Below, piece after piece: positions 1 through 14,409 of a stretch of 16,557 nucleotides of DNA. Position numbers and translations under genes: made by a program. Numbering within the stretch: position 1 is the stretch's first letter; each line of letters opens with the position of its first letter. The stretch is taken from NCBI GenBank assembly GCA_964351345.1, contig CAYGNZ010000015.1, positions 1 to 16,557 of the forward strand. The letters are read 5' to 3'. The notes beneath the pieces were generated by a model, which was given only the letters and a program-made list of their open reading frames with translations, was not told the origin of the DNA and searched no databases. This DNA comes from an uncultured Bdellovibrionales bacterium (GTDB taxonomy: Bacteria; Bdellovibrionota_C; UBA2361; SZUA-149).

Positions 1-167
1 GCTTTTGTTTTCGCGCTGGCTTTTTTCTTCGCCGCAGCTTTCTTTTTCGACTTTGTCGCGCTGAGCTTTACCTCGACAACCTTCTCTTTTGCGCTTTTTT
101 TCTTGGCAACTGAAGTCGCTTGTTTTGTATTCCGCTTCCGCGTTGAACCTTGACTACCTGCTTTCAT
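1..167 (-). CDS. Histone H1-like lysine/alanine-rich DNA-binding protein, N-terminal fragment (gene continues beyond window start)
   Basis: Not in the supplied ORF track because it runs off the edge. The minus-strand ATG at 165-167 overlaps the TAA stop (167-169) of the upstream acidic gene (TAATG). An SD-like GAGGAAG lies 4-5 nt upstream. 55 open codons reach position 1 and translate MKAGSQGSTRKRNTKQATSVAKKKSAKEKVVEVKLSATKSKKKAAAKKKASAKTK. This is K/A-rich, like bacterial H1/Hc1-type histone-like tails. It is low-complexity A-rich sequence, so a chance ORF is not excluded. Confidence 0.45.
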   Translation of the reverse strand, partial: MKAGSQGSTRKRNTKQATSVAKKKSAKEKVVEVKLSATKSKKKAAAKKKASAKTK

Positions 168-835
168 TATTCTTCCTCTGCTTCGTGTTCTTTTTGTGCG
201 TCATTCCGCACGCGCTCTGCCTCTGATCGCTGATACTCTTCAGCCTGCTGAGCTTTTCTCAAATCTTCTTCCTCCGGAGTCGAGCTTGAGACCACAATCG
301 GTCGTGATCCAGATTCGCCTCCCTCCACAAATCCAGTCATCGCATGGGGCAGAACCTTTTTCAGGATCGACTTCATATCAGCCAACTGAAAATCAATTCG
401 ATCTAAGGTTGCTCCATCCTGCGCCACTTCGAGCTGCGTTGTGATGCGATCAATCTTTGTGGTGAGAAGAGTAAGTCGGTTGGTAAGAATATCGAGCTGT
501 TTCTCGACCACGCCGAGTTGCTTAGCCGTGGCCAGACCCATCAAATGCACGATGCTTGAAACGGGCACATCTCGACTGTGCGACGGCGCTGTCTGTCGTG
601 ACTCAGAAAGTGCGGCCTTTGCTCGCTCAATTACCTCGCTTGCTGATTGCACTACCCCAGCGGCAGGGTCTTTCTGATCTTGTTCGCCAGATTCACTCTC
701 TTCCGCCTCTGTTTCCTCAGAACCCTCTGAGGCATCTTCTGCCTCGAGTGCCTCGGTTACCTCAGCCTCATCGACCATCTCGATTGCCTTCTCGGTAACA
801 CCAAGCTCTTCATTCGCCAGATTCTCTTCCGACAT
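167..835 (-). CDS. Highly acidic coiled-coil protein (hypothetical); acidic E/D/S-rich N- and C-termini flanking a heptad-repeat core
   Basis: 222-aa ORF. The N-terminal ~55 aa are dominated by E/D/S/T (EEAEESESGEQDQKD). The core has leucine/isoleucine heptads (LGVVEKQLDILTNRLTLLTTKIDRITTQLEVAQ). The C-terminus is EEEDLRKAQQAEEYQRSEAERVRNDAQKEHEAEEE. The stop is coupled to the start of the downstream K-rich ORF. It is not PspA-like despite similar size. No family assigned. Confidence 0.7.
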   Translation of the reverse strand: MSEENLANEELGVTEKAIEMVDEAEVTEALEAEDASEGSEETEAEESESGEQDQKDPAAGVVQSASEVIERAKAALSESRQTAPSHSRDVPVSSIVHLMGLATAKQLGVVEKQLDILTNRLTLLTTKIDRITTQLEVAQDGATLDRIDFQLADMKSILKKVLPHAMTGFVEGGESGSRPIVVSSSTPEEEDLRKAQQAEEYQRSEAERVRNDAQKEHEAEEE

Positions 836-857
836 AGGGGTACCAGCCTGCTCAGAA

Positions 858-887
858 CAGCCCTTCGAGAAAATCCATAAAGGGCTG
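858..887 (-). terminator. GC-rich 8-bp inverted repeat (CAGCCCTT / AAGGGCTG, 14-nt loop) in the spacer between the CorC-family gene stop and the acidic-protein gene start; possible terminator or 5'-UTR stem
   Basis: Perfect 8-bp stem at 858-865 and 880-887, seen directly. No clear U-tract follows on the minus strand (TTCT only), so a terminator role is uncertain. Confidence 0.2.
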
Positions 888-953
888 ATATCATTATCAA
901 ATATTGTATAGGTAAATTGCTAGGGAACTCACTTCTCAGCTAAGTTCTCTGCA

Positions 954-2438
954 CTAAGATTGTGATGCCTTAACCACGGGAGTGGTTTCATCAACTTCTT
1001 CGCTGTCGAGCTGTATTAGGCGCACAGCTTCAATTCGGTGATTTTCTACTTTTTCTACTCTTATCACGACTTTAACCTGGTCTTCGGTCGAATCCTCTGC
1101 CTCATCCTCTTCGCCGGCAGCACCGTTGAGTAGCTGAAGAGCTGCGCCGTTCTTGGAGCTCTCCGCCTCTTCTTCAACAACCACCTCTCCCGAGTCAGCA
1201 ATGGAAACCTCATCACCCCCTTCGGGCATTCGCCCCAGGGAAGTAAAAATGAAGCCCGCAATGGTATCGTAGTCACCTTCTGGGATTTCTAGATCAAGCC
1301 GATCATTGAGATCCGTGACCAGCATTCCGCCATCAACCACCACATCTCCATTATCATGCTCAACAAGCTCCAACTCGGGAGTGTCAGACTCATCGAAAAT
1401 GTCGCCAACGATTTCTTCGATTAAGTCTTCAAGAGTCACAAGCCCGTCCACGCCTCCGTGCTCATCAAGCACGATCGCCATATGAAGCTTACGGCTTTTG
1501 AACTCATTGAGCAGATCATCAATGGGCTTTGTGCCGGGAATAAAATACGCCTGCCGCATAATTTTCGAGAGATGAAAGTCTGCCGCTTCCGGCTCGGACT
1601 TATGGGCGATGTAGGAGAGAAGATCTTTTACTAATAAAATGCCGTGAATATCGTCAATACCATTGCCGCTTATCGGAAAGCGAGAAAACCCTGTTTCTTC
1701 TACTCTGGCGAGCACCTCGGGCAGCGCCGCACCAATATCAACCGCAACCAAATCCGTGCGCGGTGTCATTACCTCTCGTGCCACGGTTTCTGAGAAACCA
1801 AACACTCCTCGGAGCATGGTCTCCTCATGCTCGTCAAAGATACCGTGCTCGGTGCTTTGCGTAACAAGTCGGCTAATTTCTGAGGCCGAGTGCATGCGCT
1901 CTGCCGTTTCAGGAACACTCGTGCTGAAAGGCTTTAGGATAAGATTTGCCAACTCAATTACGAGAAAAAGAATTGGTCGAAACACTTGGGCTGCAACAAA
2001 CAACGGTATTGCAAAAACACGTAACGTGCTTTCTGGATTTGCCATCGAGATTGATTTTGCAACCATCTCAGCAATAACAATATGACTGAGCACGGTGGCA
2101 ACGATGGAGATAATCACCGCAAGCGCTTGCCGCCCCAGCCCCCCGAAGCTAAGCGCGTAACTTGACTGCTCCAGTGAGATGAAAAAGACATACGCCAGCC
2201 AGCCCAGCAGAATCGAAGCGACACTTCGCCCGAGCTGACAAACCGCAAGACTAATACTCACCCGTGCAAGCAACCAACACGCTGCGTGTGAGGACCATCG
2301 CTTTTTCTTTCCCTCGACTTCAAACGGTTCGGTACTGCAGCGCAGTATCGCCAATTCCCCTGCGGCACAAATGCCATTGGTCAAGAGCAGCACTGCAGCG
2401 AGGATTAAATAGAAGTGGAGGGAAAACGAGAGTTCCAT
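954..2438 (-). CDS. CNNM/CorC/TlyC-family transporter: DUF21 transmembrane domain + CBS pair + CorC_HlyC (transporter-associated) domain; putative Mg2+/Co2+ efflux or hemolysin-family protein
   Basis: 494 aa from the ATG at 2436-2438 (the track's extra M is a TTG one codon upstream). Four N-terminal hydrophobic helices. CBS motifs (VAREVMTPRTDLVAVD; HGILLVKDLL; MAIVLDEHGGVDGLVTLEDLIEEIVGDIFDE). C-terminal CorC_HlyC-like segment (VVVDGGMLVTDLNDRLDLEIPEGDYDTIAGFIFTSLGRMPEGGDEV...VKVVIRVEKVENHRIEAVRL) interrupted by an acidic low-complexity insert. Confidence 0.9.
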   Translation of the reverse strand: MELSFSLHFYLILAAVLLLTNGICAAGELAILRCSTEPFEVEGKKKRWSSHAACWLLARVSISLAVCQLGRSVASILLGWLAYVFFISLEQSSYALSFGGLGRQALAVIISIVATVLSHIVIAEMVAKSISMANPESTLRVFAIPLFVAAQVFRPILFLVIELANLILKPFSTSVPETAERMHSASEISRLVTQSTEHGIFDEHEETMLRGVFGFSETVAREVMTPRTDLVAVDIGAALPEVLARVEETGFSRFPISGNGIDDIHGILLVKDLLSYIAHKSEPEAADFHLSKIMRQAYFIPGTKPIDDLLNEFKSRKLHMAIVLDEHGGVDGLVTLEDLIEEIVGDIFDESDTPELELVEHDNGDVVVDGGMLVTDLNDRLDLEIPEGDYDTIAGFIFTSLGRMPEGGDEVSIADSGEVVVEEEAESSKNGAALQLLNGAAGEEDEAEDSTEDQVKVVIRVEKVENHRIEAVRLIQLDSEEVDETTPVVKASQS

Positions 2439-2681
2439 CAAAGGTATTGAAAGCTTCCTGCGCTACGTAATTATTTTGCTGAGACAGATTGCATGCCGGG
2501 AGTCTCCGCACGCCTCCGCAGACGCCGGGCGCGCGAAAGTTTCGCTCGAATCAGCTTGAACTGGATGTATGTATGGAGACCAATCGTAGGTGATCAGTAG
2601 GCTTCGACTAGGAGGTTCGTCTTTCACCTATATAGAATGACGGGATTTCTAAGGAACTGTCAAGCAGACACCTACAAAAAT

Positions 2682-2692
2682 AGATACTATCT
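2682..2692. promoter_or_regulatory. 11-bp palindrome AGATAcTATCT in the 380-bp divergent intergenic region between the CorC-family gene and the Hdr-like oxidoreductase gene; candidate operator
   Basis: Perfect inverted repeat with a 1-nt centre, seen directly. It sits ~130 bp upstream of the 2822 start in an AT-richer stretch. No known regulator motif is assigned. Confidence 0.2.
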
Positions 2693-2821
2693 GTTGTAAT
2701 TGCAGGCGCTTAAGCAAATTATCTCTGCTCTTCCACGAGTCCTCCCTCCGAGCCATTTTGGCCCCCTGGAGAGAAGTTACACCCTTTTCTGCCAAAGATT
2801 CGTTCTGCTAGAGTTTTGTGC

Positions 2822-5035
2822 ATGGCTACAAGCACTTCCTTAGATATCGCAAACAGAGAAATCCTCTGGAACGTCTCCTCCACCCCAAACGTGGTGACCA
2901 TGTATTTGCTCTTCGGCATCTCGCTCGTGGTTTGCCTCTGGGGATTCTGGCGTCGCTTTGAACTTTGGAGCGCGGGCACGACCGCCTCCGAGCGGCTGTC
3001 TGCTCCCCTGCGACGAGCGAAGATACTTTGGGACTGGGTGCTCAACCAGAAGGGCGTTGTTGCAGAGCGCAAACCGGGAATTTTTCACACCCTGATCCTT
3101 TGGGGATTCCTGGTGCTGCTATTTGCAACGACCATGGTTTTTATCGATCACGACCTTGGTATTCGTATTTATCAAGGACGCTACTACCTCGCAGTCACCC
3201 TCCTGGCCGATGTCTTTGGCCTGCTCCTCCTGATAGGACTGAGCTTGGCGTACTATCGCCGCTATATCGAACAGCCGGACCGCCTCCACAGTGGCTCAGG
3301 CGATAGTGTGATGCTGGGACTGCTTGTTGCCTTATGTGTGCAAGGCTTTTTGCTGGAAGCATTGCGTATCCACGCCACCGAGGATCCCTGGGCAATATAC
3401 TCTCCCGTGGGCTACGTGCTCAGTTTACTCTTTTGGAATTTCTCAGAAGAGAGCAGCAGGTTACTTCACTTTGTCATTTGGTGGTTTCATGCAATCAGCG
3501 TATTCATCTTTATTGCCCTGCTTCCCTATACCAAATTTCTCCACATTTTCTCTTCGAGCGCCAATTTGTTTTTCAAGGAAATCGATCGACCAAAAGGCGC
3601 GCTGCGATATCCTGGAGATATCGAATCGATGATGGAAGAGATGCTTTCTTCTGAAGATGACGAAGAGTTCATTCTCGGCACTCCGAGCTTGAAGGAACTT
3701 AGCTGGAAGGCACGACTCGACCTTGATGCCTGCACAAGTTGCGGACGCTGTCAGTCGGTGTGCCCCGCCTACAATTCCGGCAAAGCACTCTCCCCGAAAT
3801 GGCTTATCCTCGACACAAGAAATCACATGTTAAAGCTTCGTGCCGACGGCCATCTCGAGTCCGATGCTGAGGTGACTTCTGGGCTTCGCCAGCTCAATGC
3901 GCTCGATCGCGGGCTGCTTGATGACGTGCTCCTTGCCGACTTTAACGAGCCTACTCGTCGGCGAGCAGATAATGAGCTGGTGCAGAATGCGGCGCAGGCC
4001 GTCGGTGAGAAAACAGACGCCCGCCTTGCCGGCGAGGTGATGGACGAGGACGTCTATTGGTCCTGCACGACTTGTCGGGCATGCATGGAGGTCTGTCCTG
4101 TAGGCATCGAGCATGTGGATCACATTCTTGATGTTCGTCGCTCAATGGCACTGATGGACGGCAATATTCCGAGCGAGGCACAAACAAGTCTGCGTGCGAT
4201 AGAAACTCGAGGGAATCCTTTTGGCCCGGCTGAGGAACGCGCGAACTGGAGTGACGGCCTTGAGATTCGCCTGCTTGAAGAGGGTGATTCCGTTGAGGTG
4301 CTCTATTGGGTAGGCTGCATTTCCGCCTACGACAAGAGAAAGCAAAGTATTGCTCGGGCAATGGTTGAAATACTCAATCGTTCCGGGGTGAGCTGGGGGA
4401 TGTTGGGAAATAAAGAGCATTGCACGGGGGACCCCGCTCGTCGCCTCGGCGAGGAGAACCTATTTCAATCCTCTGCGAAGACCAACCTTGCCACGCTCCA
4501 TTCCGTCTCGTTTCAACGCATCGTTGCGAATTGCCCCCACTGTTTTAACACCTTGAAGAACGAATATCCTGCGCTTGGCGCCCTCCAGGAGCAAACCCAG
4601 GTAGAGGTCGTGCATCACAGCCATTTCATCAAGGAACTCCTTGATGCGGGAACGCTGCAGGTGAATCAGGACGCAACGCAAGACATCACCTTTCACGACC
4701 CCTGTTACCTTGGTCGTCATAATGACAGCTACCAGGAGCCACGTGACGTCTTGGTCCAAATCGGCGGAGCAAAGCTTCGTGAAATGAAAGATTCAAAAGA
4801 GCGCGGAATGTGCTGCGGTGCCGGTGGCGGACATTACTGGTTTGATATGAAAGTTGGCGAGCGCGTCAATGTCCAGCGTGCAGAACAAGCCGTCGCCACC
4901 GGCGCTTCTACGGTGGCCACCGGCTGCCCCTTTTGTTTGCAGATGATGGAGGATGGCATGAAACTCGGGGGTCACGAGGAGCAGGTGGAGGTGCGTGACA
5001 TCGCCGAGCTTGTTGCTGCCTCGCTTGTCTCCTAG
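2822..5035 (+). CDS. Fused membrane cytochrome b (NarI/HdrE/DsrM-like, 5 TM, di-heme His pattern) + HdrD/GlpC/DsrK-like iron-sulfur oxidoreductase (2x CX2CX2CX3CP ferredoxin motifs, 2x CCG cysteine-rich domains); putative quinol:acceptor oxidoreductase
   Basis: Five N-terminal TM helices with paired His (FHTLILWGF...FIDH in TM2; LHFVIWWFHAISV...KFLHIF in TM5). Two [4Fe-4S] motifs (CTSCGRCQSVCP, CTTCRACMEVCP). Two CCG-type domains (VGCISAYD...HCTGDP...CPHCFNT, then DPCYLGRHN...MCCGAGGG...GCPFCLQMM). The track ORF begins at TTG 2816. The first ATG is 2822. ATG 2900 (MYLLFG..., directly at TM1) is an alternative start. Confidence 0.85.
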   Translation: MATSTSLDIANREILWNVSSTPNVVTMYLLFGISLVVCLWGFWRRFELWSAGTTASERLSAPLRRAKILWDWVLNQKGVVAERKPGIFHTLILWGFLVLLFATTMVFIDHDLGIRIYQGRYYLAVTLLADVFGLLLLIGLSLAYYRRYIEQPDRLHSGSGDSVMLGLLVALCVQGFLLEALRIHATEDPWAIYSPVGYVLSLLFWNFSEESSRLLHFVIWWFHAISVFIFIALLPYTKFLHIFSSSANLFFKEIDRPKGALRYPGDIESMMEEMLSSEDDEEFILGTPSLKELSWKARLDLDACTSCGRCQSVCPAYNSGKALSPKWLILDTRNHMLKLRADGHLESDAEVTSGLRQLNALDRGLLDDVLLADFNEPTRRRADNELVQNAAQAVGEKTDARLAGEVMDEDVYWSCTTCRACMEVCPVGIEHVDHILDVRRSMALMDGNIPSEAQTSLRAIETRGNPFGPAEERANWSDGLEIRLLEEGDSVEVLYWVGCISAYDKRKQSIARAMVEILNRSGVSWGMLGNKEHCTGDPARRLGEENLFQSSAKTNLATLHSVSFQRIVANCPHCFNTLKNEYPALGALQEQTQVEVVHHSHFIKELLDAGTLQVNQDATQDITFHDPCYLGRHNDSYQEPRDVLVQIGGAKLREMKDSKERGMCCGAGGGHYWFDMKVGERVNVQRAEQAVATGASTVATGCPFCLQMMEDGMKLGGHEEQVEVRDIAELVAASLVS

Positions 5036-5039
5036 GACT

Positions 5040-6836
5040 ATGCTGCCCAAGCCCGATGCCCATATCGAGGTGCTCACGAAGCTCTCAGGCGAGCAGCAGC
5101 TCGAGCTATTTCAGCAAAACGCCTACGCCGAACTTTCCCAACACTACCTCTCCGTCCTTCACTACCTACAACGCTACCCCTTGCTGCAGTTAGGAGAAGA
5201 AACAAAAATTGCACTCAATCTTTTTATCGAACGCTTTCTCTTCTTTTTCTCACAGGCAAGCTTCGAACTCCCCGCCTCCGATGCAGAACGCTTTATTGCG
5301 GCCAATGCAAACATCGCAAATCTTACTGCTCTCTCCGAACTACAAACAACAGACGCCTATCTACAAAAAGTTGCGGTCCAAGAGAATGGACTTGCAAAGC
5401 TTCTCACGCTCTACTCTGCCCGAAACACTGTACGAATAGATCGTTCGGCATTGTTTCAACGTAACCCTCAGCTCGCCTCACGTTGGTATATGGCTTTTTT
5501 CGATACCTACACCAGCGCACTTGCCGACAATAACGCCCTAGAACATTTACGCATGCATCTTGAGAGTATCGACCCACGGATTGATCTCGGTCGGGCAGTG
5601 AATCGAGTGTACTTTGCCTGCACCTATATTGATCCAGAGAAAGACGCTGCGTTTAAACAGTTTATTAATACTCGCGTTCAAGAGAATCATCCGGTAACGC
5701 TCGAATTTGGCCCCGAACATAGGAACAACAAAATTGCCGTGTTCAGCGGCTGCTGGCGGAACACGCACGCGGTGTATAAAAATCAGTTTGCCTTCATCGA
5801 ATCGCTTCGAGATGACTATCAGCTTACCTTTTTCCCCCTTCGTAACCGTCAAGACACTTCGCTCTTTCACAAAATCGACCATTCCTGTCGCGAGGGACCG
5901 CTGCATCTTGAGTCTTTTCAACGGGAGAACTTTGCCGCAGTGTATTTTCCTGATGTAGGGATGACCGAGCAAAGCATTATCCTGGCAAACCTGCGGCTTG
6001 CTCCCTTACAAATCGCATCCTTTGGTCACTCGGTGAGCAGTTTTGGCTCGAAGGTGGACTACTTCATTGCTGGAGAGGAGGTCGAAGACATTTCTCTGTG
6101 GCAAGAGAACTACTCCGAGCGCTTGGTGATACTACCAGGACTGGGGATGGTGAACTTGTTACCCGAGGTCCCTGCCGTAGTTTCTCAGGATGAAAGCGAC
6201 GTCGTTCGTATCGCCTGCCCCTGGTCGGCACCAAAATGCTCTGCAGCGATTATTCAAACGCTAAAAAGAATCGTCGCACACGCTCAGCGCCCACTGCATT
6301 TCCTCTTTTTGGCAGGTGGTGGCGTGACACGAGCAAACGGTTACCTCCCTTTTGTGCGGCAATTGGAATCTACTCTGCAAGGGGCCTCAGTTGAAGTGCT
6401 CCCTCACCTTCCCTATCCAGAGTATTTAGAAAAGATCGGCCAATGTGATTTCGCTCTTGATTCATTCCATTTTGGTGGCTGCAATAGCGTGGTTGATGTC
6501 TTACTTCTTGGTAAAGCAATTCTCAGTCAACAAGGCTCAAAATGGTACAACCGAATCGGAGGAGCCCAGCTCAAACACATCGGGCTTGGGGAGCTGGTTC
6601 ACCAAAGCGATGATTCTTACTGCGAGCAAGCCCTACGGATAATTAACGAACCAGGGTATCTGGCCGCGCTTGAAGAAAAAATACATGCCGCAGACATCGC
6701 AAACGGAGCGCTGTTTTCAACCCAGCCTGCAGTCGGCTTTAAGCGTGCAATCGACTACCTCATGGCGAATCATCATCAGCTCAGCAAAGAAAACACCCGT
6801 GCGCCTATCGAAATTAGTTTGAATCTCTCGGATTAG
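5040..6836 (+). CDS. GT41-family glycosyltransferase (O-GlcNAc-transferase / HMW1C-NGT-like catalytic domain) with an all-helical N-terminal domain and no TPR repeats
   Basis: 598 aa from ATG 5040, 5 bp after the upstream TAG. The upstream GTG at 4995 lies inside the previous gene. The C-terminal two-thirds align by eye to OGT-family blocks: [26 protein letters not shown] vs OGT [43 protein letters not shown] vs G(Y/H)PGTTG..[21 protein letters not shown] vs [52 protein letters not shown] vs [35 protein letters not shown]. Its size (~600 aa) and helical N-terminal domain resemble HMW1C/ApNGT-type enzymes. Confidence 0.7.
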   Translation: [598 protein letters not shown]

Positions 6837-6962
6837 ATAGAATTAGCAAAAAACTTCCCCCGATAAGGTGACGCTTGATGCATACTAAAGCATATCCCTA
6901 GCGAACCAGTATTTTTGAGTATTGCGTTTGATGAGAACAAACACGAAACGGGGAATTGTATC

Positions 6963-7412
6963 ATGCCATCGCAAGCAACCGTACGTAACAACCGAGTGCT
7001 CAGCACAATATACTTTGTTGCTGCCCTAACGTTCTTCGGCGTAGCCTACTACATGGCTCGGACCTTTGAGATATGGTCCCCCTTACTGCTGACACTCAGT
7101 GCGGCAAGCCTGAGCATTGCCGTGCTCACCTTGCTGACCAAACGTCCGTTTATCACCTATCTAATTTGCGTGCTCACGTATGTATTTGCGATCCAGCAAA
7201 GCCTCTCAAGCCTACTCGGATCAAGTATCTATGACTCACTCGGTTTATTGTTTGCCTGCACGGCCTTCTTCTCGACTCCGCTGATTTATCTCTTAATCAA
7301 ACAGTCGCAGATCAACTCTCAACATTCGCTTCGTGATACGCTTTTTACGCTGCCCACTTTCCGCAGTGACGCTGCGAAGAAAAGCGATACCCCAACCGCT
7401 GCAAATAGTTAG
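6963..7412 (+). CDS. Small integral membrane protein (4 predicted TM helices), hypothetical
   Basis: The track ORF starts at TTG 6915. The first ATG is 6963, preceded by GGGGAA 7 nt upstream. Four hydrophobic stretches (LSTIYFVAALTFFGVAYY; LLLTLSAASLSIAVLTLL; ITYLICVLTYVFAI; LGLLFACTAFFSTPLIYLLI). No family recognised. Confidence 0.6.
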   Translation: MPSQATVRNNRVLSTIYFVAALTFFGVAYYMARTFEIWSPLLLTLSAASLSIAVLTLLTKRPFITYLICVLTYVFAIQQSLSSLLGSSIYDSLGLLFACTAFFSTPLIYLLIKQSQINSQHSLRDTLFTLPTFRSDAAKKSDTPTAANS

Positions 7413-7420
7413 AACCTCAA

Positions 7421-8422
7421 TCACGCTTGCTTCAGCTGCTCCGGCACGAGTGTACGTGCCGTCTGTGCCGCGATGAAATTCAACACCGGCGCGAGGTAAC
7501 GCAGGCCTGGTGTAAACTGCAGCGCTCTTCCTCCCTCCGTAGCAGCAACATTTAGAATATCTCGAAGACTGAAGTCAGACTGCGCAAGTCGCTCTGAGAC
7601 TCGGCGCAACTCACTCCAAAGTCCCGCAGAAAGCGTCGTTGCACTTTCTAGTACAGACGCAGTTTTTGGCGAAACCGCTGCAATCCCCTGCACGGCCAGC
7701 GAGAGTGGATCAAATACTGCTGCAATTTTTGCAAAATCTCCGAACGCCCCCCGGAGAAATGATCCAATGCCTCCACTCTTCTTGTAGTAGTAGGACACAG
7801 GAACGGTCTCACCTGTGGGCGTGTCCTTAAGCTCAAGAACATAATAGCGACGTCCATCCTTGATACGAATTCTATCACTCGGATTCTCCAAGAACTGTGC
7901 GAGTTCTTGTTCATATTCCGCAATGAAGTCATTCACCCAGCGGTCGATGTTCTCATTTGCAACTGAACTCTGATCGCTTCGCGCGGGGAGCTTACTGACT
8001 TCAATGCCGAGCGCGAGACTAATTTCTGCCAACTTCCTATTCTGTTCAGGTGTCAGCAAGGGGTTTCGCAGACGAACAAAGCCAAGGGAGCTCCAGGCCA
8101 GAAATCCGTTCTCACTATCTCCAAGCCCGCCGTTTCTTTCCGTCGCGGCGGATACCTCTTGTTGCCAGGCAGGACTGAGGAAATTCGCAACTCCTGCAGC
8201 TGCAATCTCTCCGGCTGACTTCGGTGTGGGCACATATGCGGCAATATACTCTTGGGTGATGTTCTCAAACGAGAGTTCGGCGTCTGCAATGGAGAGGCTT
8301 TGGTAGGGACGCTCGGCGAGCACTGCTGAGCCGAACTGGGTAGTGCTCGGTGCTTGCGCAAGGTACTGCGCTAACCGAGGTGCAAGCGGAGGAGAAGTGG
8401 TGGCAATCGAAGAAGTCATCAT
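7421..8422 (-). CDS. Hypothetical protein, 333 aa, no recognisable domain
   Basis: Long ORF with coding-like composition, starting ATGATG with no obvious SD. Its stop is 8 bp from the stop of the convergent membrane-protein gene. Its 300-bp upstream region is shared divergently with the TerB-like gene. Confidence 0.65.
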   Translation of the reverse strand: MMTSSIATTSPPLAPRLAQYLAQAPSTTQFGSAVLAERPYQSLSIADAELSFENITQEYIAAYVPTPKSAGEIAAAGVANFLSPAWQQEVSAATERNGGLGDSENGFLAWSSLGFVRLRNPLLTPEQNRKLAEISLALGIEVSKLPARSDQSSVANENIDRWVNDFIAEYEQELAQFLENPSDRIRIKDGRRYYVLELKDTPTGETVPVSYYYKKSGGIGSFLRGAFGDFAKIAAVFDPLSLAVQGIAAVSPKTASVLESATTLSAGLWSELRRVSERLAQSDFSLRDILNVAATEGGRALQFTPGLRYLAPVLNFIAAQTARTLVPEQLKQA

Positions 8423-8549
8423 AGCAGGGACTCAGTAAAACGGTTTTTCTTCTGAACTAATCGCTGAGAGCGCCATTTAGTTGCGCTTTGCTGATAAATA
8501 CTAGCCCAGGCCACGCGATCGCAGCTGATACCCTCAGATAATGAGTAGG

Positions 8550-8559
8550 AATTGCAATT
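8550..8559. promoter_or_regulatory. Perfect 10-bp palindrome AATTGCAATT (followed by a related ATTGCtttCAAT half-site pair) in the divergent promoter region between the orphan gene (-) and the TerB-like gene (+); candidate operator
   Basis: Seen directly in the sequence. It lies ~130 bp upstream of the orphan gene start and ~165 bp upstream of the TerB gene start. No regulator is assigned. Confidence 0.2.
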
Positions 8560-8723
8560 ACTTATTGCTTTCAATATCCAGGTTCACGATAATCACGCCA
8601 CAAAGGTAAAGCGAAGTGGCCCGTTTCACCGATACTAGCAATGAATTTTGTCAGAGGAACCTGAGCGAGCATGCTGCGAGAATTCTCGCAGTAGCATCAA
8701 GAAAGGTTCAAAAAGGAGCTAGA

Positions 8724-9185
8724 ATGTTTAAAAACATGGACCAATTCCTCCAGGGAGCAGCCACGCTAGAGGTTGATGTTTCTGGTCAGCTCAGTCAACG
8801 CGATTTACAAATAAGCACTGCCGCACTTTTGCTCCAGATGGCGCATGCGGATGAAAAACTTACCAATGGTGAAATTGATGCCATGGTAAGCACGATGGAT
8901 AAATTATTTGTGCTCCAAGGGAATGTGGCGGGAGATTTACTCGAAGTCGCTGACTTCCTTCGTCGAGATCAAACTAAGCTTGATGATCTGCTCAAAGTCG
9001 TCAATAAGCGATTCGACGCCGCTCAAAAACAAACAATCGTCGCAATGCTCTGGAAAGTGATGAATGCAGACGGTTTTATTGACCCCTTTGAAGCGAATTT
9101 GGCCGCCGAGATCAGCATGAAGTTAGGGCTCAGTGTTGATGAGGTAAAAAAAGCTCAATCTCTCGCGGATACCGCACAAGTTTAA
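8724..9185 (+). CDS. TerB-like (tellurite-resistance TerB / DjlA N-terminal-like) helical domain protein
   Basis: 153 aa from ATG 8724, with a strong SD AAAAAGGAG (8710-8718) 5 nt upstream. The track ORF starts at an upstream GTG 8616 without an SD. Two TerB-type repeats with the acidic-glycine signature: LLLQMAHADEKLTNGEIDAM and LWKVMNADGFIDPFEANLAAEISMKLGLSVDEV. Confidence 0.75.
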   Translation: MFKNMDQFLQGAATLEVDVSGQLSQRDLQISTAALLLQMAHADEKLTNGEIDAMVSTMDKLFVLQGNVAGDLLEVADFLRRDQTKLDDLLKVVNKRFDAAQKQTIVAMLWKVMNADGFIDPFEANLAAEISMKLGLSVDEVKKAQSLADTAQV

Positions 9186-9232
9186 ACTGAAGTCTAGGAC
9201 CTTATTGATACACATAGCCGAGGAAGAAAAAC

Positions 9233-10279
9233 ATGGGTTTATGGGACGGGATAAAGGGTCAACTCCGATCGGTCATCGAATGGGAGAATGCCAGCAAAGA
9301 TGCGCTCTTTGAGCAGTGGACCTCCAACGGTGATGAAATAAAAAATGCTTCAAAGCTAATCGTCAAACCCGGGCAAGGTGTTATCTTCCTCTACGAAGGA
9401 AAAATAGAGGCCGTCCATACCGAAGAGGGCATGTTTGATCTTGCGACATCGAACATTCCGTTTTGGACAACGATTACGAAGTTCATGCAGGCGTTTGAGA
9501 GTGAGCATAAGGTCGGCATTTACTACTTCTGGAAAACGCAGTTTCTCGACCAGAAATGGGGCACTGCAACGCCGGTGAAATACGACGATCCGGTGTATAA
9601 GTTTCCTGTGTCCCTACGTGCCCATGGAAACTTTACCTTCCAAATTACCAAGCCTGAATTCTTTTTTGTGCAGGTAGTGGGAAGTGAGAAGCTGTATCCT
9701 GTAGCAACGGCTCGCCGAGTAATTACTGATCGTTTCATTCAGGAGCTGAGCGACCTTTTTGCAGAAGCAGGGCATAGCTACGCTGAGATTGATAAAAATC
9801 GAAACGAACTCTCGGCAGCACTGAAAGAAAAACTCCAGCCCGTGTTCGAGCCGCTTGGCTTTACCATGAATGACTTCAGAATCGAGGGCACGGACTTCGA
9901 CCAAGACACGCAAGCTCGTATCGCTAAAATCGCCGATATGACTGCTGAAGCCGAGGCGGCGAAACGGGCGGGAATTTCTTATGCAGAAATGCAACAACTC
10001 CATGCGCTTCGTGATGCAGCGAAGAACGAAGGTGGTCTTGCGGGAGCAGGAGTCGGGCTTGGAGCAGGAGTTGGGCTTGGCCAGGTATTTGCCGCAGGAA
10101 TGGCTGGCAATATGGCACAGGGCAACGCCGGCGCTCCAGCCGCAGCCGCAGCCGCAGCCGCAGCCGATGAGAATAGTCCTACCGCACGATTAAAGAAACT
10201 CAAGGACATGCTCGATGCCGAGCTAATCTCTCAAGAGGAGTTCGATAAGAAACGAGCTGAAATACTCGCTGCCCTTTAG
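9233..10279 (+). CDS. SPFH/Band-7 domain protein with C-terminal SHOCT domain (YdjI-like), with a Gly/Ala low-complexity linker
   Basis: SD GAGGAAG 6 nt upstream of ATG 9233. The N-terminus MGLWDGIKGQLRSVIEWEN...ALFEQW...IKNASKLIVKPGQ follows the conserved YdjI-type SPFH start (MGLFDKLKGE..IEW...LVW). The C-terminal TARLKKLKDMLDAELISQEEFDKKRAEILAAL is a SHOCT-type helix-turn. The linker contains GAGVGLGAGVGLG and A9. Confidence 0.9.
   Translation: MGLWDGIKGQLRSVIEWENASKDALFEQWTSNGDEIKNASKLIVKPGQGVIFLYEGKIEAVHTEEGMFDLATSNIPFWTTITKFMQAFESEHKVGIYYFWKTQFLDQKWGTATPVKYDDPVYKFPVSLRAHGNFTFQITKPEFFFVQVVGSEKLYPVATARRVITDRFIQELSDLFAEAGHSYAEIDKNRNELSAALKEKLQPVFEPLGFTMNDFRIEGTDFDQDTQARIAKIADMTAEAEAAKRAGISYAEMQQLHALRDAAKNEGGLAGAGVGLGAGVGLGQVFAAGMAGNMAQGNAGAPAAAAAAAAADENSPTARLKKLKDMLDAELISQEEFDKKRAEILAAL
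10043..10078 (+). repeat. Tandem 18-bp direct duplication (GGAGCAGGAGTCGGGCTT / GGAGCAGGAGTTGGGCTT) encoding GAGVGL x2 within the SPFH-SHOCT linker
   Basis: Two adjacent 18-bp units with 1 mismatch, seen directly. Confidence 0.85.
10137..10166 (+). repeat. (CAGCCG)5 hexanucleotide microsatellite encoding poly-Ala (PAAAAAAAAAAD) in the SPFH-SHOCT linker
   Basis: Five perfect tandem CAGCCG units, seen directly. In-frame coding repeat, not a CRISPR. Confidence 0.9.
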
Positions 10280-10284
10280 AGAAA

Positions 10285-10899
10285 ATGAGTTCTCAAAACT
10301 ATACTTGCCCATCGTGTAGTGCTCCGCTTGAAGTTGCGCATCGGTTTACCAAGCTCGTGATTTGTGCGTACTGCAACCAAGCCTCCTTGGTCACACCGAG
10401 CGGTCTTGATCCAAGCGGTGAGCAGGTCCCTCTGGCAGACTTCCCTTCTCGCTTTGCGATTGGCAAATCGGGCACACTCAATGGCGAGACATTTACGGTG
10501 CTGGGTCGTCTTCGCTACGGCTATGAGGGAGGATTTTGGGACGAGTGGTTTCTTTCATTCTCCGATGGGAAAAAGCGCTGGCTTCAAGAAGACGAAGGCG
10601 AACTGACGCTGTTTGAAAAAGAGTCGCTCACCGCTCCTGTGCCCGCTTTTAATGAGATCTCAGTGGGCTCACTACTCCCCGTGAATGAATTCAAGGTGTT
10701 TGTCACGGAGAAAAACAAAGCGAGTATTCGTGGCGGGGAAGGCGAGCTGTTTTTTACCGTGCAACCGGGAAGCACCGTGTATTGCATCGACGGCAACGCG
10801 GGAGGTGAACTCGTCTCCTTAGAGTTTAGCGATTCAGAAATTTGCTTTTCAAAAGGGAAAGAAATTTCACACGAATCTATCAATCTGGAAGATCAATGA
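10285..10899 (+). CDS. DUF4178-type protein with N-terminal zinc ribbon (CPSC...CAYC)
   Basis: Starts 5 bp after the SPFH stop. N-terminal YTCPSCSAPLEV...VICAYCNQASL zinc ribbon. Trp-rich core GETFTVLGRLRYGYEGGFWDEWFLSFSDGKKRWLQEDEGELTLF, which matches what I recall of the DUF4178 signature (G..Y.v.GR..Y....WdEw.L..dG...WLe.d). Confidence 0.75.
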   Translation: MSSQNYTCPSCSAPLEVAHRFTKLVICAYCNQASLVTPSGLDPSGEQVPLADFPSRFAIGKSGTLNGETFTVLGRLRYGYEGGFWDEWFLSFSDGKKRWLQEDEGELTLFEKESLTAPVPAFNEISVGSLLPVNEFKVFVTEKNKASIRGGEGELFFTVQPGSTVYCIDGNAGGELVSLEFSDSEICFSKGKEISHESINLEDQ

Positions 10900-12882: not shown

Positions 12883-14409
12883 ATGACAGAAGCGAATTCG
12901 ACTCGCGACGCAAGGACTGCGATCCTGATTTTTGCAGTGCTCATCACCTCGTTCTGCGCGATTGTGTATGAGCTACTAATCAGCACCCTCTCTAGTTACC
13001 TCTTTGGCGGTAGCGTCCTGCATTTCTCTCTCACTATCGGACTCTTTATGAGCTTCATGGGAGTAGGCAGCTACCTTTCAAAGTACGTGGAAACAAAGCT
13101 GCTCGATTGGTTTGTCGGCATCGAAATTTTCATTGCGCTGCTGGGCGGATTCTCTGGGCTCCTGCTGTATGGTGCCTACAGTCTCACAGAATTTTACTAT
13201 GCAATTGCTTTTTGCCTGATTGCCCTAATTAGCATCGGCGTGGGCATGGAAGTGCCGCTCATTACAAGAATTATCAAAGAGAATTCCCGGCTACAAGACG
13301 CCTTAGCCAATGTGCTTGCCGTTGATTATGCAGGAGCATTACTGGCCTCCATCCTTTTCCCCGTTATTCTCTTGCCCTATCTCGGCGTCATGCGAACCGC
13401 GTTCGCGGTAGGCATCCTGCACGTCATTGTTGCTGCATATACCTGCGTGGTGCTCGCAGAGATTCTACAACTGAAAAAACTTCACCTGCTCGCCTCCGCC
13501 GCCTCCGCGCTGTTGCTGCTACTGGGGTTTGCCTACTCGCTTTCTCTCGTCGGCATTCTGGAACAGTATCTCTATCAAGATCAGATTTTGTATTCGCAGC
13601 AATCGAGCTACCAAAAAATCGTCCTCACCAAACACAAAGCAGACACACGACTCTTTCTTGATGGCAATTTGCAGTTTAGCTCAATTGATGAATATCGCTA
13701 TCACGAAACCTTAGTGCATCTCCCACTGCACCTCGTCCCTCAAGCCGAAAACGTCTTGCTCCTTGGCGCCGGTGACGGCTTAGCCCTACGAGAGTTACTG
13801 AAATACCAATCAATAAAAAGCATTACCTTAGTCGATCTAGACCCGGTGATTACGCAGCTCGCCAGAGAGAACAAAGACCTACGCGAGCTAAACGCAAACT
13901 CCCTGGATGATCCGCGCGTCACGATTTACAACCAAGATGCCTTTGAGTTTATCGCCAAGAACGAAGCGCTCTATTCCGTAATTATCGCTGACCTCCCTGA
14001 CCCGAACACACTTAGCTTAGGAAAACTCTACACCAAGGAATTCTATACCCTCCTCCGCAAACGTCTCGCAGGCGATGGAGTGTTTATCACCCAAGCCACC
14101 TCACCCTATTTTGCTCGCCTACCCTTTTGGTGCATTCATCAAACAATGGAGGCCGCGTTCCCGCATGTGCAAGCTGCGCAACTCTATGTGCCCTCTTTTG
14201 GTATTTGGGGATTTCAACTTGCGATGAACCACTCATTTAGCTTGCCGGATACGGAATTTCGCGTGCCCACCCGCTGGCTTACCCCAGAGTTGGTCTCGGG
14301 CATGGAGCGCTTTGACGCTGATATTGCTGAAGTGCCAACCACGATCAATCGCTTAGATAATCAGACCTTAGTGGGCTACTACGAAGCAAGCTGGGAGGAC
14401 TGGAACTAA
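12883..14409 (+). CDS. speE: Polyamine aminopropyltransferase (spermidine/spermine synthase family) fused to an N-terminal ~230-aa polytopic membrane domain
   Basis: N-terminal hydrophobic helices (ILIFAVLITSFCAIVYELLISTL; LTIGLFMSFMGVGSYL; IEIFIALLGGFSGLLLYGAY; AIAFCLIALISIGVGM; AGALLASILFPVILLPYLGV; GILHVIVAAYTCVVLAEI; ASALLLLLGFAYSLSLVGI). The C-terminal SpeE domain has the decarboxylated-SAM binding motif NVLLLGAGDGLALRELLKY (cf. GGGDGG) and the catalytic-region motif YSVIIADLPDPNTLSLGKLYTKEFY (cf. DVIIVDSSDP...LFT.EFY). Confidence 0.85.
   Translation: MTEANSTRDARTAILIFAVLITSFCAIVYELLISTLSSYLFGGSVLHFSLTIGLFMSFMGVGSYLSKYVETKLLDWFVGIEIFIALLGGFSGLLLYGAYSLTEFYYAIAFCLIALISIGVGMEVPLITRIIKENSRLQDALANVLAVDYAGALLASILFPVILLPYLGVMRTAFAVGILHVIVAAYTCVVLAEILQLKKLHLLASAASALLLLLGFAYSLSLVGILEQYLYQDQILYSQQSSYQKIVLTKHKADTRLFLDGNLQFSSIDEYRYHETLVHLPLHLVPQAENVLLLGAGDGLALRELLKYQSIKSITLVDLDPVITQLARENKDLRELNANSLDDPRVTIYNQDAFEFIAKNEALYSVIIADLPDPNTLSLGKLYTKEFYTLLRKRLAGDGVFITQATSPYFARLPFWCIHQTMEAAFPHVQAAQLYVPSFGIWGFQLAMNHSFSLPDTEFRVPTRWLTPELVSGMERFDADIAEVPTTINRLDNQTLVGYYEASWEDWN

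Follow-up and report, generated by a model that had tools for sequence, protein, structure and literature searches.

A coiled-coil protein and a variant PHP-fold protein with a histone H1-like tail form a conserved gene pair in uncultured Bdellovibrionota

Why should the gene of a strongly acidic protein run, through overlapping stop and start codons, into that of a strongly basic one? The question is raised by the left end of a 16,557-nucleotide (nt) stretch of DNA from an uncultured Bdellovibrionales bacterium (GCA_964351345.1, contig CAYGNZ010000015.1), referred to here as the window, where the gene for an acidic coiled-coil protein of 222 amino acids (aa; 167..835, minus strand) is followed by a lysine-rich open reading frame (ORF) that leaves the window after 55 codons (1..167, minus strand). 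An earlier interpretation, made from the letters of the window alone and termed here the sequence-only reading, proposed a histone H1-like nucleoid protein together with a dedicated acidic chaperone or antagonist. Comparison across genomes shows that this end of the window holds, as judged from gene order and homology, an operon of two genes that is conserved in an uncultured lineage of Bdellovibrionota. The partnership appears to be one of a coiled coil with a PHP domain and not of an acid with a base, and both families are unannotated and confined to Bdellovibrionota metagenome-assembled genomes (MAGs).

The lysine-rich frame reads MKAGSQGSTRKRNTKQATSVAKKKSAKEKVVEVKLSATKSKKKAAAKKKASAKTK, containing 18 lysines in 55 residues, and is free of stop codons to the window edge. 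A stop just beyond that edge would leave a small peptide, but contig L001 (GCA_030427545.1), which is 99.2% identical to window positions 1-10148 and reaches 448 nt beyond the window, keeps the frame open for at least 205 codons, as far as the conserved segment EEEKLRQNMISPSMASLKPFREAAKRN. Complete genes are found in the relatives L002 (466 aa) and L004 (473 aa), with the same MK(A/S)(G/S)SQG N-terminus and the same overlapping or adjacent ATG. Since the frame stays open in the first and is complete in the other two, the window holds the first codons of a gene for a protein of about 465 aa, and the lysine-rich stretch is assigned by homology to the N-terminal ~190 residues of this much larger protein, being neither a small peptide nor a stand-alone histone-like protein. 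In the full layout the variant PHP domain is preceded by a helical linker (LKPFREAAK) and, ahead of that, by a disordered tail of ~190 aa rich in lysine, alanine, serine and threonine. The sequence-only reading was thus right to see a lysine/alanine-rich ORF of histone H1 type leaving the window, while its view of that ORF as an H1-like nucleoid protein in its own right does not survive.

In the L001 copy the first 175 residues of the tail contain 60 lysines, 48 alanines and 4 Asp/Glu (34% Lys, 27% Ala), and the isoelectric point (pI) of the tail, computed on relative L002, is 11.0. Residues 1-180 are predicted to be disordered, with a predicted local distance difference test (pLDDT) score below 55 in the AlphaFold2 model. 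The basic region makes up ~40% of the 466-aa protein, the conserved part of which is the PHP barrel. Tail length and sequence vary, with ~100-330 aa lying ahead of the barrel; tailed members span 300-550 aa with 22-39% Lys plus Arg in the tail, and many members of 235-270 aa are tail-free. Neither the 55-aa fragment nor the full 466- and 473-aa relatives match the Pfam families Hc1 (PF07432) or HC2 (PF07382) at E<=1, and the tail shows no regular pentamer or KPAA repeat, Tandem Repeats Finder giving a single array of 2-3 copies of 18-21 nt. One short motif, KVVEVxLS (residues 29-36; window 59-82, minus strand), is kept in the otherwise unalignable tails of L002, L004 and P0006-P0021 and may be a docking strand. 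The public annotation of L001 places a 199-aa gene (L001:10028-10627) opposite the lysine-rich strand, at the contig end that corresponds to sequence immediately left of window position 1. The call is probably wrong, the homologues with a conserved PHP domain pointing to the lysine-rich strand as the coding one.

The pairing was traced in 83 loci gathered through the PHP domain alone, with all ORFs scanned using a hidden Markov model (HMM) of the partner built from the window protein and two relatives. A partner homologue is present in 72 of the 83, as a single match in each, always immediately upstream of the PHP-like gene and on the same strand, although the PHP domains themselves are merely 40-60% identical. 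The partner also lies upstream in most additional metagenome loci, a scan which yielded few further tailed loci. The close linkage of the two genes and their wide synteny are therefore confirmed. About 60 species-level genomes, however, pair the coiled-coil partner with a PHP-like protein that has no tail, and about half of the tailed loci that extend far enough upstream have no adjacent partner. Because of these two observations the association, as read from gene order, is assigned to the coiled coil and the PHP domain; it appears to be older than the tail and independent of it. Of the proposed acid/base regulatory pair, the linkage and synteny hold, while the dependence of the pairing on charge does not, and a chaperone needed by the basic tail is not the organising principle of a pairing found also in tail-free genomes.

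A family based on the C-terminal ~220 residues of the downstream protein numbers more than 100 clusters at 90% identity. Its members come from MAGs, most of which are labelled Bdellovibrionota, Bdellovibrionales or Oligoflexia, while some have older or generic names. An AlphaFold2 model based on a 38-sequence alignment has linker helices at residues 185-197 and 204-230, followed by a barrel (243-460) whose pLDDT exceeds 90. Foldseek matches this barrel to PHP phosphoesterase 3e0f (3e-8), RNase AM, the PHP domains of Pol III alpha (E. coli, ~1e-6, and Thermus) and PolC, the PHP matches spanning E-values of 3e-8 to 1e-4 at a Foldseek probability of 1.00. At the sequence level, 23 of 30 members match Pfam PHP (PF02811) at E<0.1, just under the gathering score (best 2.8e-6); P0074, for example, reaches 24.0 bits against a cut-off of 26.4, with the first ~66 of 164 model positions covered in the stretches shown for P0004 and P0074. 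The downstream protein is confidently predicted, from the model and its structural matches, to adopt the distorted (beta/alpha)7 barrel of the PHP fold.

Active PHP enzymes coordinate metal through nine ligands, in the order H, H, D/H, H, E, H, C/H, D/N and H, while E. coli Pol III alpha, in its metal-free domain, carries R10, H12, D19, F44, D69, H83, G134, D201 and R203 (Barros et al. 2013; PMC3666897, Table 1). Among 179 distinct members of the PHP-like family, position 1 (canonically His) is Arg in 160 and Lys in 18 but never His, and position 2 (His) is retained in 139 and replaced by Gln, Asn, Lys or Arg in 39. Position 4 (His) is Phe, Tyr or Leu, with His found once, and position 5 (Glu) is Asp in 88 and Glu in 6, being otherwise Ser, Val or Ala. 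Position 8 (Asp/Asn) is Asn or Asp in 172, and position 9 (His) is Asn in 118 and His in only 12. By this tally the family is without most of the nine metal ligands. The best sequence-level match in the PDB comes from E. coli Pol III alpha, in its PHP domain, with HLRVHS, ITDF and GADF set against DLRIHT, ITDY and PGLD (E ~0.02), and a local-mode hhalign comparison of the family with DnaE aligns only the N-terminal half of the PHP domain. As the ligand replacements resemble those of the metal-free polymerase domain, we class the domain as a variant PHP domain, as Barros et al. use the term, and predict a non-catalytic role. A distinct set of polar residues is at the same time nearly or fully invariant across the 179 members, namely D248, E332, PSRxDKTP at 380-387 (S381-R382 and D384-K385-T386), R389, D406, S431 and R442, and this set shows, at the level of the alignment, that some site in the barrel is under strong constraint.

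The acidic ORF opens with ATG at 835 and closes with TAA at 169-167 on the minus strand. Its product has a pI of 4.4, with 51 Asp/Glu against 22 Lys/Arg, and is organised as two charged ends around a helical core. The N-terminal arm (residues 1-56; 668..835, minus strand) contains 23 Asp/Glu and 2 Lys/Arg (41% Asp/Glu) and is disordered by composition and by AlphaFold2 (pLDDT ~40-55); it is unalignable among relatives, and is nonetheless acidic in all partners of the tailed clade. At the other end, residues 186-222 contain 14 Asp/Glu and 6 Lys/Arg, and a charged C-terminal helix (residues 187-222, EEYQRSEAERVRNDA...; 170..277, minus strand; alignment A3 columns 201-234) is modelled with pLDDT above 90 and finishes in an EEE tail. 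Short homologues keep this helix as (A)EEQSRKLREGI, a motif common to many members of the partner family. Between the ends, hydrophobic residues at 106, 109, 113, 116, 120, 123, 127, 130 and 134 form an unbroken 3-4 spacing (L106-L134), a second stretch with the same spacing spans 144-162 (L144-L162), and AlphaFold2 places helices at 92-98, 104-138 and 141-167.

The junction between the genes is equally as first described. The stop and start codons form a TAATG overlap (165..169, minus strand), in which TAA shares its final A with the ATG at 167-165, and a Shine-Dalgarno-like GAGGAAG lies within the final codons of the partner gene (172..178, minus strand), the end of GAGG being 7 nt from the downstream ATG. 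ORF, composition, heptad spacing and predicted helices, together with this junction, bear out what the sequence-only reading had reported for the acidic gene. L002 and L014 share the overlap of -1 nt, L004, L077, L078 and L032 have gaps of 0-3 nt, and in most other loci the gap is 14-50 nt, giving an overall range of -1 to ~50 nt. Because overlaps and the shortest gaps are limited to few loci, the operon organisation is read as general and strict translational coupling as lineage-specific.

The most conserved part of the partner is the core at residues 87-167 (335..577, minus strand), delimited by alignments A2 and A3 and the AlphaFold2 helices. It consists of a short helix, a beta-layer-like break with the residues G-L-A-T, and two heptad helices split by a second conserved motif, ATLDRIDFQ; M99, G100 and R146 are invariant in both alignments. 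Across the family the core spans ~75 residues with the consensus EVSAATIxRMMG[LI]A[TS]xxDLxLLEGKxDLLxxK...DRV...PxGSDLERIDVQIGxLK. The candidate beta-layer motif of the window copy is MGLATAKQ (518..541, minus strand), and may be set beside the published definition, [aliphatic]-A-T-K-[polar]-[D/E] (PMC4786415): the family consensus, G-[LI]-A-[TS]-x-x-[DE]-L with heptads after it, fits, and the window copy reads L-A-T-A-K-Q, with Gln at the last position. The best PDB matches of the family core profile are GCN4-fusion constructs of MATKDD beta-layer trimers, 7o92 and 5apz (E 2e-5 to 7e-5). By analogy with such beta-layer coils, the coiled-coil protein is predicted to oligomerise, probably as a trimer.

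An exact-sequence look-up of the window's acidic protein gave no match, the 99% identical relative P0001 being used in its place, and a word-indexed search with the acidic protein found three relatives only. An exhaustive HMMER profile search of 1.84 billion representatives retrieved 319 proteins, each 100-240 aa long, of which 290 score E<=1e-10, and the family comprises ~320 clusters at 50% identity. Judged from this search it is compact, with no bridge to a larger known family. No Pfam or NCBIfam family exceeds threshold for the acidic protein, the matches of this protein and of the 55-aa fragment being noise only (TTI1, NPV_P10), and Foldseek of the partner monomer model against the PDB returned nothing. 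The possibility that the acidic protein belongs to a known, unrelated family thus finds no support in Pfam, NCBIfam, Foldseek or exhaustive HMMER.

The explanation best able to accommodate these findings, put forward tentatively and at a little less than an even chance, is a complex of the coiled coil with a non-catalytic PHP barrel, with lysine tails held on a polyanion and acidic arms added as a later, shielding layer. The two proteins would associate through their conserved parts, the coiled-coil core or the C-terminal helix of the partner contacting the PHP barrel. Oligomerisation of the coiled coil, probably as a trimer, would present several PHP subunits, each barrel being used for binding and not for catalysis, much as E. 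coli Pol III alpha uses its own. In one sublineage the PHP-like protein has gained a tail of ~190 residues of the H1 C-terminal-domain type, and the arms of the partner are unusually acidic there. In this sublineage the tails may tether the complex to a polyanion, most likely chromosomal DNA by analogy with Hc1/Hc2, DdbA, PhaF and AlgP, while the acidic arms may partly neutralise or shield the tails and so limit unspecific condensation until these meet DNA. Charge shielding would then be a secondary, lineage-specific layer upon an older coiled-coil/PHP partnership. Acidic intrinsically disordered regions are known to chaperone basic disordered proteins, as prothymosin-alpha does with H1.0 (PMC7661507), and Npm2/Nap1 provide a further precedent (PMC10987829).

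Support for the charge component comes from the partners themselves. Their net charge in the tailed clade ranges from -8 to -31 with a median of -22 (n=9), compared with a median of -4 and an extreme of -18 among untailed loci (n=77; Mann-Whitney p=2e-6, kinship ignored). That partners kept beside a tail are more acidic is consistent with selection for complementary charges, and charge neutralisation is plausible as a lineage-specific, secondary add-on in the lineage of the window.

Several observations weigh against this explanation. The charge association comes from one monophyletic clade and hence effectively from one evolutionary event, and inside that clade the charges of tail and partner do not co-vary, for which reason quantitative charge matching was rejected. 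Some untailed lineages also have fairly acidic partners (net -12 to -18), and a partner of net -29 facing a tail of about +60 to +70 would, at 1:1, neutralise under half of it. Of the 20 tailed loci that extend far enough upstream, 10 have an adjacent partner and 10 have none. The partner-less loci, in which corC is followed directly by the lysine-tailed PHP gene, are scattered in a tailed clade that is monophyletic on the neighbour-joining tree. An iterated partner HMM recovered no partner in L008-L013, L015, L018, L080 and L084, where corC leads straight into the PHP gene. Loci without an adjacent partner are over-represented in the tailed clade, at 10 of 20 compared with 4 of 81 (Fisher p=6e-6). 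Because of this scattered distribution, several losses or relocations are implied on the tree, and the tail can exist without a neighbouring acidic partner. In addition, the AlphaFold2 models are of single chains, and DNA is an assumed ligand of the tail, RNA or polyphosphate fitting its composition equally. As to the barrel, ligand positions 3, 6 and 7 are not conserved or not placeable, 6 and 7 not being reliably placed, and the invariant charged residues D248, R382, D384, K385, R389, D406 and R442 could build a non-canonical active site, so that the non-catalytic role remains a prediction. The rival explanations, taken in turn below, each have weaker support than the one just given.

The strong form of the sequence-only proposal, in which an H1-like nucleoid condenser has the acidic protein as its dedicated chaperone or antagonist and the pair regulates compaction, for example in a predatory life cycle, is unlikely. 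The extreme opposite charges (pI 4.4 against 11), the translational coupling, the far more acidic partners of the tailed clade, the eukaryotic acidic chaperones of H1 (PMC7661507, PMC10987829) and a nearby HU-fold gene, joined in some loci by dnaE, all speak for it. Yet the pairing predates the tail and is kept in ~60 genomes without one, every second tailed gene is without a partner beside it, the basic protein is more than a simple histone-like one, and what is conserved is a neutral coiled-coil core and a PHP barrel and not the charged regions. What stands of the antagonist or chaperone claim is the greater acidity of partners where a tail is present; what falls is the dependence of the pairing on that tail. 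A bolder version, and a decidedly improbable one, would make the acidic-armed oligomeric coiled coil, within one Bdellovibrionota sublineage, a chaperone of linker-histone type comparable to prothymosin-alpha or nucleoplasmin, its client an H1-like tail carried on a dead PHP domain, with reversible nucleoid compaction as the outcome and an origin independent of eukaryotic chromatin.

The invariant polar residues raise the alternative of an active enzyme with a re-modelled site, a phosphoesterase or nuclease acting on a nucleic-acid or phosphorylated substrate, for which the coiled coil would be a regulator or scaffold and the charged regions incidental low-complexity drift. The invariant polar set across 179 members exceeds the needs of a purely structural scaffold, and position 2 retains His in 139 of them and position 8 Asn or Asp in 172. 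Nevertheless, at least four of the nine metal ligands have been exchanged for residues unable to bind metal (Arg/Lys, Phe/Tyr/Leu, Asn), a pattern that abolishes metal binding in E. coli Pol III alpha, and even the His of position 2 becomes Gln, Asn, Lys or Arg in 39 members, which makes this reading quite unlikely.

A role in granule tethering, of the PhaF/PhaI or AlgP type, has also been considered and is very unlikely. A phasin-like coiled coil would here coat a polyhydroxyalkanoate (PHA) or polyphosphate granule, the tail would link it to the nucleoid or bind polyphosphate, and the degenerate phosphoesterase fold would bind a phosphate polymer, for which the invariant Arg and Lys of the barrel could serve. 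PhaF does join a phasin domain to a nucleoid-binding, histone-like region (PMC7590123), H1-like AlgP organises polyphosphate granules (PMC9239181), and 10 of 38 partner cores match Pfam Phasin (PF05597) below threshold (best E 0.0048). The sub-threshold matches of these cores are, however, to generic coiled-coil models, DUF2730 and NPV_P10 among them beside Phasin, and most likely reflect the common A-T-x-x-D coil motif. Furthermore, PhaF carries its basic tail and phasin domain within a single protein, and no PHA synthase or polyphosphate kinase gene occurs among the window ORFs scanned, nor in the annotated recurrent neighbour clusters, several clusters having been left unscanned.

The resemblance to Pol III alpha suggests, in turn, an accessory of replication or repair. 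The variant PHP domain, standing alone, would mimic that of the polymerase and work with DnaE, and the lysine tail would provide DNA affinity. In E. coli, the PHP domain of Pol III alpha docks the epsilon proofreader. The best sequence-level PDB match is to this very domain, with the same R, F/Y and D substitutions, and 22 loci, among them L002 and L003, the closest relatives of the window, have dnaE on the same strand 80-4086 nt downstream. In the relatives of the window a receiver-only response regulator and an HU-fold gene sit between the pair and dnaE. Against this, dnaE is missing from the 6-kb downstream flank of 46 loci with room for it, so that the linkage is clade-specific and was set aside as a functional clue. 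The sequence resembles Pol III alpha only weakly (E ~0.02), no substitutions are commoner among variant PHP domains than those shared here (PMC3666897), and the neighbouring DnaE retains a canonical PHP domain with HLHLH, TDH and GCE motifs. We regard such a role as highly doubtful. Finally, a part in defence was dropped, as PADLOC matched neither the partner nor the PHP-like protein to a defence system.

The HU-fold protein (PF00216) downstream of the pair (L002:12899-13219, L008:7814-8167, L009:5201-5611, L011:2690-3133 and L013:7320-7670) displays an apparent N-terminal signal peptide (MKNSLSFLCLLCSVLVFTSTAFGEQ...), which suggests that this HU-like protein is exported or periplasmic; such a location would be unusual. 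In the untailed clade, L020-L084, 30 loci encode an EVE-domain protein and 27 a methionine aminopeptidase ~0.8-1.3 kb past the PHP gene, in the position taken by the response regulator, HU and dnaE genes in the tailed clade.

Upstream of the pair in the window is a gene for a CNNM/CorC-family transporter (954..2441, minus strand; Pfam CNNM, CBS and CorC_HlyC), found on the same strand in 61 of 81 loci. Co-transcription of corC with the pair is possible on weak evidence; a scan of the minus strand of the 118-nt gap between corC and the partner gene, itself uninformative, found no sigma-70-like promoter or terminator. The CNNM/CorC protein contains an acidic insertion of ~35 residues (EEEAESSKNGAALQLLNGAAGEEDEAEDSTEDQ) within CorC_HlyC, the 81-position model being spread over residues 361-476. 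Divergent from corC is a gene for a 739-aa membrane Fe-S protein (2816-5035, plus strand) with a NarI-like N-terminus, two 4Fe-4S motifs and two CCG domains, resembling HdrD/DsrK. This position is kept in 59 of 81 loci, giving a conserved block, in 59-61 of 81, of the HdrD/DsrK-like gene on the opposite strand, CNNM/CorC, partner and PHP.

Further along the window, a 613-aa ORF resembling GT41 enzymes of the O-GlcNAc-transferase type (4995-6836, plus strand) follows the Fe-S gene with a 41-nt overlap. A row of TerB, an SPFH/Band-7 protein with a SHOCT tail and DUF4178 (8616-10899, plus strand), also present in L001 and L002, looks like a cluster of membrane-stress type. A 508-aa protein (12883-14409, plus strand) has a spermidine/spermine-synthase domain at residues 271-446 only, implying a long N-terminal extension, and this polyamine-related gene shares the window with a PaeA/CorC-like exporter and a polycationic protein.

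Literature on either family yielded only comparator systems, of which four are instructive. Streptomyces DdbA, which combines an H1-like with a DksA-like domain (PMC3643593), Pseudomonas PhaF and AlgP similarly carry a disordered Lys/Ala polycation on an unrelated folded domain, and the wide variation of tail length in the lysine-tailed PHP family recalls that of Hc2 (PMC2848022). Chlamydial Hc1 and Hc2 are stand-alone H1-like forms, in contrast to a tail fused to a PHP barrel. The tail in the window protein is N-terminal, ahead of the barrel, an architecture found in no annotated family; unlike Hc2 and AlgP it has neither a regular pentamer or KPAA-type repeat nor an Hc1/HC2 Pfam match; and its gene has a conserved coiled-coil partner upstream, DNA binding being putative. 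E. coli Pol III alpha shares the fold (Foldseek ~1e-6) and the same kind of replacements at positions 1, 4 and 5 (Arg, aromatic and Asp), whereas the ~220-aa domain described here stands alone, outside any polymerase, has its own invariant motifs, PSRxDKTP and FSFSNAxALAQxGSR, and is only marginally similar in sequence (E ~0.02).

Comparable to the beta-layer trimeric coils of Tcar0761/DUF3782 type (Hartmann et al. 2016; PMC4786415) is the consensus of the partner family, [LI]-A-[TS]-x-x-[DE], with heptads coming after it in register. The partner differs in having one clear motif copy and a GSDLERID-type break in place of a repeat array, the window copy ending in Gln, and its trimeric state is a prediction. 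Prothymosin-alpha, nucleoplasmin and NAP1 are comparable in that acidic disordered arms sit on an oligomerising scaffold, encoded here beside the gene of a polycationic disordered protein; these are the components from which a polyelectrolyte chaperone complex is built (PMC7661507, PMC10987829). The acidic protein shows no homology to such acidic histone chaperones in Pfam, NCBIfam, the PDB profile search or Foldseek. Its partnership is mostly with proteins that have no basic tail, and elsewhere the tail occurs without an adjacent partner. The operon linkage and the higher partner acidity of the tailed clade bear only indirectly on the putative shielding of a basic client.

H1-like bacterial tails and variant PHP domains are known kinds; what is new is that they occur combined, that a coiled coil of beta-layer type is their conserved partner, and that this partner became more acidic as the tail was gained. 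The analysis defines two unannotated families, a beta-layer-type coiled coil and a stand-alone variant PHP protein, in an operon conserved across an uncultured lineage of Bdellovibrionota, and corrects the annotation of at least one public MAG, in which the lysine-rich gene is probably called on the wrong strand. It also provides an evolutionary series in which the PHP-like protein acquired an H1-like tail and the partner matching acidic arms. Charge apart, the family would join Pol III alpha as a second clear case in which a PHP barrel is retained for a job predicted to be non-catalytic. If the charges of tail and arms do counteract one another, the pair would offer a compact bacterial model of the disordered polyelectrolyte complexes formed by eukaryotic H1 and its chaperones, and would represent a new class of nucleoid-associated protein in relatives of predatory bacteria.

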